From NCBI GenBank assembly GCA_944390535.1, contig CALXQV010000044.1:6431-70430 (forward strand): a stretch of DNA of 64,000 nucleotides, given 5' to 3'. The notes below the pieces were generated by a model. The model saw only the letters and a program-made list of their open reading frames with translations. It was not told the origin of the DNA and searched no databases. Shown here piece by piece: positions 41,801-44,800 of the stretch (positions are counted from its first letter, which is position 1; each line of letters starts with the position of its first letter). Origin of the DNA: an uncultured Clostridia bacterium. GTDB taxonomy: Bacteria > Bacillota > Clostridia > TANB77 > CAG-508. Position numbers and translations under genes: made by a program.

Positions 41801-44800
41801 TTTCTTATTGTTACACTATCAAATAAACTGTCTTGTGTTCCTGCATTTGTTCCAGTATCTTGAGATGTTTTTCTATTTACCTCTATCATTGCATTATTTC
41901 CTGAACCGCTTCCTACATTACTTGTCCAATTGACATATGCATCTCCTACTTCATATCCGAAATTATTACCAACAGATGTCTCTATTACTTGATATCTTCC
42001 TGTTAATAGGTTATAGATTCTTATCATTCCGTGATTATCTGTCACAAATTCTGTTGCATCATTGATATTTCCTGTTGTTTGTAAGTTTCCTAAATGTATA
42101 CTTCCTGTTACTTTCTTTTGTACTCCTCCTGCTGTATCTACTGCAATGATATATTGTCCATATTCATTTTTTATCTTAAACGATACGCCTGGTAGAACAA
42201 TATTGTTATTATGTGTATCTTTTTTTATGACTTGTACATTTCCTGTATCTTTTACATTTTTTAATATATATTCTTTTACCATACCTGTATACATTGTTGT
42301 GTATCCATATTCAAGGTCTGCATATCCATAATGGTCATTTGAAACCTCTGTTATTGTATATACTCCACGATATAGGTTGTCAATATGAATTCTTCCGTTT
42401 TCATCTGTTGTGAAAGTTTTGTCATATCCTATTGATGGATTTTGCACTCTTATTTGTACATCTGATAAAACAACATTTGGATCGTCTGCGTCTTGTTTTA
42501 CTATGTCTAGTATATTATTTATATTTGTCCAAGTTACTTTTGTTTCCCCATATGTATTATTTGCTGGTTGCATATTATAAGGCAATACATATAGTGTTTC
42601 AATATCTTGTCTTTCACCAGGTGTATATTGTATATTTGCCGTTTCATATGATGTTACTGTTGTTTTTGTGACGTTTGCTACTTTTGCTGTAATTGCAGAT
42701 ATTCCTTTAGATACATTACTAGCAGAAACTTTTAAATAAAATTCCATTTCACCTGTTACTGCCATATTATTTCCTGATGCATCACACGTTGTAGAATTGA
42801 TTAAGTCCCCATCTGTACCTCTTACTTCAAAAGTATATCCACCATTGTATATATTCGTATCAATTTTTAGTGGTCCTAATATGTAATTGTTATCAATTAC
42901 TTTAATACCTACAGTTAAATAAGCATATGGTATACTTAATATATCACTTGGTATATAACTAACCGCTACCCAATCTGAACCATTCCAAACAGCGTATGTA
43001 GTATCACTTCCTGCCACTGGATTCACAGTTCCAACATACTCATATTGTACTTCTCGTGCCTCTGTATCTCCTACATCAAATCCTGCTGCAGATGCAGTAT
43101 ATTCAACACATTTGGCTTCTTTAGCGTCACTTCCTGTAAAATGTGTACTGCCATGTTCATTATTATAAGGCTCACCTTCACCATGTGGACAATATATATT
43201 TTGATTTGGTCCTGGGTAGACAATACACCATGTAAAGTTCTCATTTCCTGGTATTCCTTCTGGTGCATCAGCAGCAGCTGCTGATACTTTAGCAATATTT
43301 ACAGATAGAATGATTCCTAATGTAAATAATACAATAAACGTCGTTTTCACTTTCTTAGCAATACCATATTTCTTTATAAAAAATGCTCCTACACCAATTA
43401 TTACTACTGTCACAAAAAATATTGATATAGATAAGATTACGCCTCCTGTTCCTACTGAAATAATAATTTCTGCTTTTGAAAAATCATCTTCTGTTTCTAT
43501 GTGATTTCCTGGTATAGAATCTATGTCCGCAATTTGCTTTGTATTACTTGCTTCTGCAATTTCTGCCTTATTAATAAATACTCCCGTAGAGTCTGCTGTC
43601 ATAGTTTTAGTTGCTGTTAATGTTAATGTAACACTTTCTCCTTGTTTTAAGTTATCATTTGCCAAACTATTATTAATAACACTTCCGTCATTTTCTTCTA
43701 TCCACATCTTCTTCATATTATTATCAAGTACAAAACCTTCTGGTAAATAATCTTTAACGCTTCCTACTTTAGCTAGCAAATTCCCTTCATTTGTTACTAC
43801 AATTTTGTATTCAACATTAACTTTTGCTCCTTCTAACTCTTTTGCATGTATATCTACTTTAACCAATTTTTGATTGTTATAGCTATATGATACTGTTTTC
43901 TTATTGGTTTGTACGGTAACTGCTGAAATATACTTTTCTAATTTTAAGTCAAATATCCTATTTTCCACTAGTCCTATATCAATATTAGATACAACAGATT
44001 TATCTAATGGAATAATATCTGTAACACCTACCTCTATCTCTTGCCCATTTAAGATTATTGTTTGTGCCATAGCATCTGAATTTAATGTTTCTGATATTCC
44101 GCTATTTTGATATTCTGTAACATAATATGAGTTTGTATCATATTGAAATATCACAATATATTGGCTTTTTTCTAAATCATAAAAACCATAAGAACCACTA
44201 TTGTCTGTTTTTGTTTTTTCTTTAATCACACTTGAATTTTGCATGTCTATCAACATAACAGTGATACCATTAAGTAGTTGTTCATTTGATTGTCTTGCCC
44301 CATCCTCATTTTCATCTAGCCAAGCAACACCTTTTATGTCATATCTCTCACTATCTGGATTGTCTGGGTTTGGATTATCTGGATCGTCTGGATTTGGATT
44401 GTCTGGATCTGGATTATCTGGGTTTGGATTATCTGGATCTATTGGTTCTTCATAATTAAGTGGAAGGATAATATGGGTTATTTTATTAGAAGTTTTACTG
44501 TCTGTCTGACTATTGGCTATTGTAACACTATTTTCAATTATCGTTTTTTCATATACTAGGCCAGCTGTTGTTCTGATTGTGATATATGCTGTTTCTCCAT
44601 ATGGTATATGAAGAAGTAAATCAACATTTGCCATTTTGTTTCCTTCTTCATCTTTTGTACCAGAGCTGATATTTTCTGTTATTTGTGTTTTTGTATATTC
44701 TCCTGTCGGTACTTGTACAATATTGCCTTCTTCAACTGAAATTTCATCGAAAATTTCTTCCCAATTATCATAAGTAATACTAACTGCTTCTAAATCACTT

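Follow-up and report, generated by a model that had tools for sequence, protein, structure and literature searches.

The 64,000-nucleotide (nt) stretch analysed here (the window; positions 6,431 to 70,430 of contig CALXQV010000044.1, assembly GCA_944390535.1, from an uncultured Clostridia bacterium) contains three large co-directional genes on the minus strand, which we call A, B and G. Gene G is the subject of this work: a single open reading frame (ORF) in which two adhesin-like halves, the passengers A′ and B′, are joined by an internal cassette that combines an anchor-like segment, comprising a short motif, a transmembrane (TM) segment and a basic loop, with a second signal-peptide-like segment. 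The parts of G are listed below in the order of translation, with signal peptidase I abbreviated as SPase I.

38857..47535, minus strand: fused gene G (A′B′), 2892 amino acids (aa) plus stop, a single uninterrupted ORF
47437..47535, minus strand: N-terminal signal peptide, MEKKVLKKRIIAVLITSFIILNICMLSMQFVNA; its putative cut, read from sequence, follows VNA
43459..47436, minus strand: passenger A′ (residues 34-1359), a paralogue of gene A with CLIPPER/DUF11 and SdrD_B domains
43444..43458, minus strand: internal SVGTG motif (residues 1360-1364)
43375..43443, minus strand: TM1, GVILSISIFFVTVVIIGVGAFFI (residues 1365-1387), 23 uncharged residues
43345..43374, minus strand: basic loop KKYGIAKKVK (residues 1388-1397), net charge +5
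43348-43350, minus strand: in-frame GTG, codon 1396 of G, within the basic loop and non-conserved
43279..43344, minus strand: second signal-peptide-like segment, made up of the h-region TTFIVLFTLGIILSVNIA and the c-region KVSA
43291..43344, minus strand: h-region TTFIVLFTLGIILSVNIA (residues 1398-1415)
43279..43290, minus strand: c-region KVSA (residues 1416-1419), followed by AAADAPEG
Between 43279 and 43278: predicted SPase I cut after A1419, giving the predicted B′ neo-N-terminus AAADAPEG; a semi-tryptic peptide from it would start AAADAPEGIPGNENFTW
38968..43278, minus strand: passenger B′ (residues 1420-2856), a gene B paralogue with a TIE/pilin-like N-terminal region and SpaA and SdrD_B domains
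38860..38967, minus strand: C-terminal wall-sorting signal, consisting of TPPTG, ENKPYWMY, an 18-aa TM segment and the tail KKKVL

A Kyte-Doolittle scan of G gave exactly four hydrophobic peaks: residue 10 in the N-terminal signal peptide, residues 1366 and 1400 in the two internal segments and residue 2869 in the C-terminal TM segment; genes A and B have two peaks each, as expected. The first-pass annotation of this DNA had quoted residues ~1360-1425 of the giant ORF and described them as an A-type anchor running without a stop into a signal-peptide-like segment. The quoted residues are found exactly there in G, in both sequence and coordinates, and the description holds, with the second segment sitting where the true signal peptide of gene B lies. 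A protein identical to G is present in a public collection as P0013.

The two halves of G have split counterparts immediately upstream of it, encoded as separate genes.

51801..56735, minus strand: gene A, 1644 aa, ending in SVRTGG, a TM segment, KRKNEKEDN and a stop; split counterpart of A′
51780..51800, minus strand: A-B spacer GAAAGGAAAGGAGGGAAAAAA, 21 nt, with the Shine-Dalgarno (SD) sequence GGAGGG
47817..51779, minus strand: gene B, 1320 aa, with its own signal peptide and a TPNTG wall anchor; split counterpart of B′

The sequence bears out the separation of A and B by a stop and a 21-nt spacer with GGAGGG, as noted in the first pass. Residues 82-1389 of G align with gene A as far as its last residues and C-terminal anchor, and residues 1760-2892 align with gene B. 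Because identity is only 28-30% in both alignments, G is an old A′-B′ paralogue of the A-B pair and not a recent copy.

Searches of ENA, Logan, NCBI and JGI with full-length G as query returned more than 110 homologue clusters of 2800-3400 aa, at 33-67% identity and with coverage that was often 100%. About 117 of 120 homologues share the four-hydrophobic-segment layout, the internal pair lying near residues 1300-1450, a recurrence that places this feature far beyond chance. The full-length query overturned an earlier result of "no fused relatives", in which a 541-aa junction fragment had matched only short A-type fragments ending after the anchor; that search was restricted by an 8000-candidate word filter. 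An index-free HMMER search of 1.84 billion representatives with a junction profile yielded 26 additional cassette-bearing clusters at 50% identity. It gave 1750 hits at E<1e-30, from which only these cassette-bearing extras were counted; the 1750 hits do not represent the size of the G family because the top of the list consists of unrelated giants with 14-40 CLIPPER-like repeats. The sole name given to the G family in any source is "hypothetical protein".

A scan of one genome per GTDB species yielded 75 loci, all in uncultured Clostridia metagenome-assembled genomes. Their hosts are chicken, rabbit, goat, mouse and human (Hadza) guts, and they include Clostridium sp. CAG:389 and 27_14. Some loci carry two or three tandem fused A′B′ paralogues, each with its own cassette (L039, L025, L012, L041 and L044; the tandem junctions of L039 lie at about 1193, 10642 and 20076). 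At others the ORF passes the hairpin and stops 85-143 aa after the motif (L019, ~4315; L050, ~10633; L058, ~10636; L075, ~1140; L078, ~1283). For these short-ended loci, frameshifted pseudogenes and assembly errors are candidate explanations, as is a third architecture whose second passenger is short.

Junction authenticity was assessed on assembled contigs. Contigs of four runs, from four different chicken-gut/metagenome studies, are identical and gapless over 43000-43700, and the divergent strains X9, X13 and X17 have many single-nucleotide polymorphisms along G with zero insertions or deletions (indels) at the junction. A 479-nt metatranscriptome contig (43150-43628) crosses the junction with 0 differences, DNA carry-over being possible. 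Although a T6 run lies near the junction, as might be expected of a sequencing or assembly artefact, and the split state of the neighbouring paralogous A-B pair would fit either an artefact or a recent stop-codon loss producing a pseudogene that joins two genes, the junction is identical across the contigs of the four studies and the strain variants, with no indel, and the fused layout persists at 33-67% identity in over 110 protein clusters and at some 55 genome loci. The fused loop, at 10 aa, is also unlike the A tail, spacer and B n-region expected from simple stop loss. We give an artefact or a recent stop loss next to no chance of being correct. The sequencing artefact and the lost stop raised in the first-pass annotation are rejected, since independent assemblies are identical at the junction and the fusion is ancient and family-wide; orthologous loci, far from always encoding two genes, keep the in-frame fused junction.

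In a census of 91 A-type anchor copies in GTDB and related loci, the ORF continues beyond the motif for 300 aa or more in 55 copies and ends within 45 aa of it in 31. A midpoint-rooted neighbour-joining tree of the last A-type domain, which does not set the direction of change (fusion vs. fission), places 30 of the 31 stop-terminated (split) copies in one clade, with the copy at L037 as the outlier, and distributes the 55 fused copies over several clades. Split and fused copies occur together, ~8.5 kb apart, in at least 20 genomes, which have the arrangement of the window: split A, a 20-nt SD spacer, B and the fused A′B′ gene, adjacent to spoIIE. This distribution into clades, together with the coexistence of the two forms, indicates that both configurations are old and stably maintained.

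A different way of obtaining two proteins from G would be separate translation of B′ from the in-frame GTG (43350), which would render the read-through product irrelevant. The GTG lies ahead of the second hydrophobic segment, and translation from it would begin with MKTTFIVLF...VSA, plausible as a signal peptide. In the window, however, the GTG at 43348-43350 has no SD, and the closest relative, L005 (loop KKYGISKKVK), has no in-frame start in the loop. Among 49 fused junctions, 47 show no SD-like match of at least 4 nt ahead of any in-frame ATG, GTG or TTG of the loop; in about half, the loop offers no in-frame start codon. The split A-B pairs, in contrast, retain AAAGGAAAGGAGG ahead of the ATG of B: this spacer sequence is common to the window and the orthologous loci L001 and L003, and in the three split A-B junctions examined the conserved SD lies 7-9 nt ahead of the ATG. 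Given the absence of SD and start codons at fused junctions, independent translation of the second half is not a conserved feature. Separate translation would not select the common frame kept in more than 110 homologues; that this frame is kept across the junction in all these lineages argues for the single chain as the target of selection. Internal initiation at 43350, another option of the first-pass annotation, finds no support in a start that has no SD, is absent in L005 and is not conserved, and we consider it highly improbable. The fusion appears to be selected and not accidental: the split pair keeps its stop, strong SD and ATG, and the fused junctions are without SD and often without a start.

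Across homologues, the cassette follows the order EDD[YF]SxA[DE]xII, S[VI][SG]TG, TM1, K/R-rich loop, second hydrophobic segment and AXA-like site. The internal motif S[VI][SG]TG, which has no proline, is present in 117 of 120 homologues (SVSTG 50, SISTG 32, SIGTG 18, GVSTG 9), and its T and G are invariant. TM1 consists of 20-23 uncharged residues, and the K/R-rich loop of 9-15 residues has a median net charge of +5. The apolar core of the second segment has a median length of 14 aa (interquartile range 14-16), compared with median apolar runs of 22 for TM1, 19 for the C-terminal TM segment and 19 for the N-terminal signal. The core is followed by a polar stretch with small residues (VSA|A, TFA|A, SFA|G, VYA|G, VEA|H). 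By a heuristic rule of our own ([AVSTIC]-x-[AG], no Pro at -2 or +1, within 12 residues of the core), 116 of 119 homologues carry a small-residue (-3,-1) site, whose -1 residue is Ala in 80; among random body positions the share is 25-29%. Residues 1388-1419 of G have the positive n-region, short h-region and small -3/-1 residues of a Sec/SPase I signal peptide and are predicted to act as one.

An AlphaFold model of the junction from a 16-sequence alignment had a mean pLDDT of 81.7. In this model, the residues through S-V-G form the last β-strand of a confident Ig-like domain, and a helix 26 residues long begins right after the motif G. A two-residue break at the G-I of the loop separates it from a second helix, which takes in the remainder of the loop plus the second hydrophobic segment. 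With a strand running through S-V-G and a helix starting right after G, almost no free linker is left around T|G.

Both passengers contain domains typical of surface fibres. Pfam domains in G include SdrD_B (80.1 bits, cut-off 29.7), SpaA (CnaB-type; 58.7, cut-off 23.1), CarboxypepD_reg-like and DUF11 (34.5, cut-off 24.6), and the same set is divided between genes A and B. DUF11 was recently renamed CLIPPER, an isopeptide-bond domain of fibrillar adhesins (PMC12617251). G thus has the stalk domains of fibrillar adhesin and TIE-pilin-like surface proteins. The N-terminal region of B′ (residues 1425-1765) was modelled from 19 sequences with a mean pLDDT of 83.3; among PDB structures, Foldseek ranks the Bacillus anthracis TIE protein 6fwv first for this model (E=1e-9), with major pilins, basal pilins and MSCRAMMs next, the TM-scores being low, as expected of multi-domain rods. 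The first ~70 residues of B′ are Cys-rich, variable among homologues and modelled with a pLDDT of 50-65. No Pfam TED (thioester domain) match was found in G. The last domain of A′ is an Ig-like β-sandwich (pLDDT >90), for which a fold search returned only generic Ig-like sandwiches (CARDB, CLIPPER, integrin calf, RhoGDI) and no functional clue. Based on these domains and structural matches, both passengers look like stalk-and-tip fibrillar surface proteins.

Some short motifs near the tip of B′ are recorded here as observations. Directly after the second signal, many homologues have F/Y-x-GGP-x-G-x-G-x-C-x-x-H/G; in its place, residues ~1421-1495 of G (~43050-43275) contain several Cys (FTWC, IYCPHGEG, KCVEY). 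In gene B, LFCVQHG and VQNAIW resemble a thioester-domain Cys and the TQxA(I/V)W motif.

The two anchors of G differ in their resemblance to known sorting signals. With 16.4 bits, the C-terminal signal only just passes the 15.9 cut-off of the NCBIfam model LPXTG_anchor (TIGR01167), and that of gene B (TPNTG) passes it with 23.1 bits; the C-terminal motif consensus in the G family is x[PTAS]PTG(E). The isolated internal signal of G had zero matches in NCBIfam at E<=10, so that it cannot be assigned to any known type of C-terminal sorting domain (PEP-CTERM-like and others). The gene A tail scored 13.9 against LPXTG_anchor, below the cut-off, with a match limited to its TM part. The internal signal of G does share with sorting signals a hydrophobic segment (20-23 residues) followed by a positive tail (median +5). 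It is also positionally homologous to the C-terminal signal (…AEIIISVGTG vs. …VELTITPPTG), with V or I in place of the proline, and the membrane-proximal domains of the two signals cross-align. The invariant TG and the strict separation of the two motif classes hint at enzymatic recognition. The proposal of the first-pass annotation that the A-type SVxTG is a sorting signal is unproven, as this motif fails LPXTG_anchor and its first residues are modelled inside the last β-strand of the preceding domain. Sortase processing of A′ is a conceivable step; it may also be that TM1 simply keeps A′ in the membrane.

A subgroup of fused homologues (P0106, P0108, P0116 and P0117; 3026-3443 aa) has ISTNPG[RK]TDY replacing xPTG before the TM segment and basic tail, which suggests a different anchoring motif. 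Elsewhere in the window, a FemAB-family gene (245 bits) adjoins an alanine racemase gene (1750-2865 and 3038-4186, both plus strand). Sortase anchoring usually takes as its nucleophile the peptidoglycan cross-bridges that FemAB enzymes build.

The ORF of G is real, its cassette is conserved and the signal-like features are present. With SP1 and SP2 denoting the N-terminal and internal signal peptides, the precursor layout is SP1 - A′ - (S(V/I)xTG + TM1 + basic loop) - (SP2, AXA-type site) - B′ - (xPTG + TM + KKK). We infer the topology of this chain, its cleavage by SPase and any sortase action as follows. SP1 would direct the chain to Sec, resulting in export of A′. TM1 would then stop transfer, and the +5 loop would be held in the cytoplasm according to the positive-inside rule, doubling as the anchor's tail and the second signal's n-region. 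Export would be restarted by the short second hydrophobic segment, acting as an internal signal peptide, and SPase I would cut after VSA1419, freeing the tip of B′. B′ would become an adhesin- or pilin-like fibre with a free N-terminal tip, anchored to the wall via its C-terminal TPPTG signal, and A′ would be held by TM1 plus the residual hairpin or possibly processed at T|G by a sortase. The outcome would be two separate proteins, produced 1:1 and co-localised. The split A-B pair presumably approximates such 1:1 delivery by tight translational coupling, through its 20-21-nt spacer and strong SD. We conclude that G is probably an intact, anciently fused gene for a Sec-exported two-passenger surface-protein precursor that is cut by SPase into two proteins. 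This corresponds to the remaining option of the first-pass annotation, of which the single chain with its conserved in-frame cassette is the part best supported by comparison, and release of two proteins is a predicted step.

If the second segment were not cleaved, G would instead yield one polypeptide of ~2,860 residues, in which TM1, the loop and a second TM helix form a permanent staple with both arms outside and only the C-terminus attached to the wall. Cleavage is a prediction from sequence, the junction is modelled as two helices with a tight turn, and a hairpin topology is ordinary for bacterial membrane proteins. However, the core of the second segment, with a median of 14 aa (TM1, 22), is short for a stable TM helix, and the (-3,-1) site is found in 97% of homologues vs. 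a background of ~27%, a site that a permanent anchor has no reason to keep. Moreover, the N-terminal region of B′ is a variable pilin/TIE-like tip, and a membrane tether there would defeat a wall-anchored fibre. We consider the uncleaved hairpin unlikely.

The predicted release of B′ by SPase is also the starting point for a covalent A′-B′ fibre, in which a sortase would cut the internal motif at T|G and attach A′ to B′, or to another subunit, through a lysine or the new N-terminus of the acceptor. The invariance of the T and G is in keeping with such a reaction, and the strict separation of the internal S[VI][SG]TG from the C-terminal xPTG is like the motif specialisation of sortase-built pili; the best structural matches of B′ are, as described above, a TIE protein and major and basal pilins. 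Yet there is no sortase gene in the locus, no pilin-motif lysine was identified, and the +1 residue after the predicted SPase site is unconserved (A 24, E 14, G 10, and others). In addition, a folded strand lies directly against the internal motif, which the LPXTG model does not recognise. These features make the covalent fibre improbable. The same low probability attaches to the idea that the internal cassette is a built-in assembly device, by which one ORF would give a two-subunit covalent pilus-like fibre without a pilus sortase operon; if so, the split A-B pair would do likewise via translational coupling.

Several points weigh against processing of G into two separate surface proteins. 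Expression evidence consists of the single metatranscriptome contig, which could be DNA carry-over. The SPase cut at VSA1419 is predicted by the (-3,-1) heuristic and not by a trained predictor. For A′, the internal motif, which lacks proline, goes unrecognised by the LPXTG_anchor model, and S-V-G, modelled in the last strand of a confident domain, would leave little free linker for a sortase. No gene for a sortase or a signal peptidase was found in the 64-kb window, nor in the 10 kb flanking the orthologous loci L001 and L003. Clostridioides difficile SrtB failed to cleave the proline-less NVQTG in vitro (PMC4155245), and NVQTG, which we had taken up as support for a proline-less sortase motif, was dropped for that reason.

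Two distant relatives have orthologous loci in which the gene order of the window is kept: L001 (174-kb scaffold) and L003 (325-kb Hadza contig), whose G proteins are 48% and 37% identical to that of the window. In both, gene A (1583-1646 aa) is followed by a 20-nt spacer, gene B (1318-1319 aa), a gap of ~300 nt and the fused gene (~3000 aa), beyond which lie spoIIE, a WG-repeat protein gene, a gene for a 410-aa protein, ACPS and TatD. The other flank in the window contains minC, PBP2 and mreD/mreC (mreBCD). The locus is a stable chromosomal site in a spore-former and not a mobile element. The gap between B and the fused gene is ~280-320 nt in the window (47536-47816), L001 and L003, and that between A and B is fixed at 20-21 nt, a difference which suggests that A and B are co-translated and that G has its own start region. 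In a scan of 38400-57200 for promoter and terminator consensus sequences, counts equalled those of shuffled sequence and gave no information on an internal promoter.

Some other ORFs of the window are noted for completeness. The 410-aa ORF at 33343-34575 (minus strand) has no Pfam family at E<=0.001, and its place after the WG-repeat gene is kept in L001 and L003. At the same threshold there is no Pfam family for the plus-strand ORFs 13194-15110 (638 aa), 16522-17685 (387 aa) and 56938-57471 (177 aa). The genes rpoB and rpoC are usually adjacent; here a 189-aa ORF (21493-22062, minus strand) lies between rpoB (22086-25859, minus strand) and rpoC (17735-21316, minus strand), with a weak PemK/MazF-like toxin match (E=7e-5, 23.4 bits vs. 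a cut-off of 23.1).

The textbook Gram-positive surface protein has one signal peptide, one passenger and one anchor. Full-text literature searches for internal sorting signals, two LPXTG motifs and sortase polyproteins turned up no account of the architecture of G, and the only precedent they gave is the streptococcal Zmp proteins' N-terminal region. In the pneumococcal IgA1 protease/ZmpA, ZmpB and ZmpC, this region contains a signal peptide, an LPXTG motif, two hydrophobic domains and a proposed second signal-peptidase site, and it is the closest precedent for the layout of G (PMC3518915). The order of elements is the same, with a TG-type motif followed by two hydrophobic segments, and the main Zmp passenger lies downstream of the internal anchor. 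However, the part of Zmp upstream of LPXTG is short, whereas both passengers of G are multi-domain, adhesin-like and ~1,350-1,450 aa long; the Zmp motif is a canonical LPXTG and the internal motif of G is proline-less; and the Zmp passenger is a protease without a C-terminal wall anchor, whereas the second passenger of G has its own sorting signal. G shows no sequence homology to Zmp, and a Pfam scan of G found no M26 peptidase domain, placing it outside the Zmp family.

Other known systems resemble parts of G. Classical LPXTG signals, including the (S/P)PXTG of C. difficile, likewise combine a TG motif, a hydrophobic segment and a basic tail, but the internal copy in G is not C-terminal, has V or I where the P would be and leads into a signal peptide where a stop would otherwise stand. 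TIE proteins, MSCRAMMs and Gram-positive pilins (6fwv, BcpA, EbpB) share with G the SpaA/CnaB, SdrD_B and CLIPPER repertoire and are the structural matches of B′, but the known ones are single-passenger proteins with one signal peptide and one anchor. Nor does G lie in a sortase-assembled pilus locus, as its neighbours (spoIIE, WG-repeat, ACPS, TatD, minC, PBP2, mreBCD) include no sortase. Flavivirus and alphavirus envelope polyproteins alternate stop-transfer and internal signal sequences, and SPase processing of them yields several anchored ectodomains; these, however, belong to the eukaryotic endoplasmic reticulum, are evolutionarily unrelated to G and involve neither a cell wall nor a sortase. 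What is new in G is an internal anchor plus second signal peptide that links two complete adhesin-like proteins, in an uncharacterised family.

Tools for annotation and surface-proteome prediction that restrict sorting signals to C-termini and signal peptides to N-termini will misread G-type proteins, and such giant ORFs risk being flagged as fusion errors. The cassette itself is compact, at ~60 aa, and directly testable as a portable module. A large protein family from uncultured gut Clostridia systematically has two full-size adhesin-like passengers per chain, with the cassette between them. If the processing proposed here is correct, these proteins would be a bacterial counterpart of SPase-processed polyproteins, guaranteeing 1:1 production and co-localisation of the two passengers.

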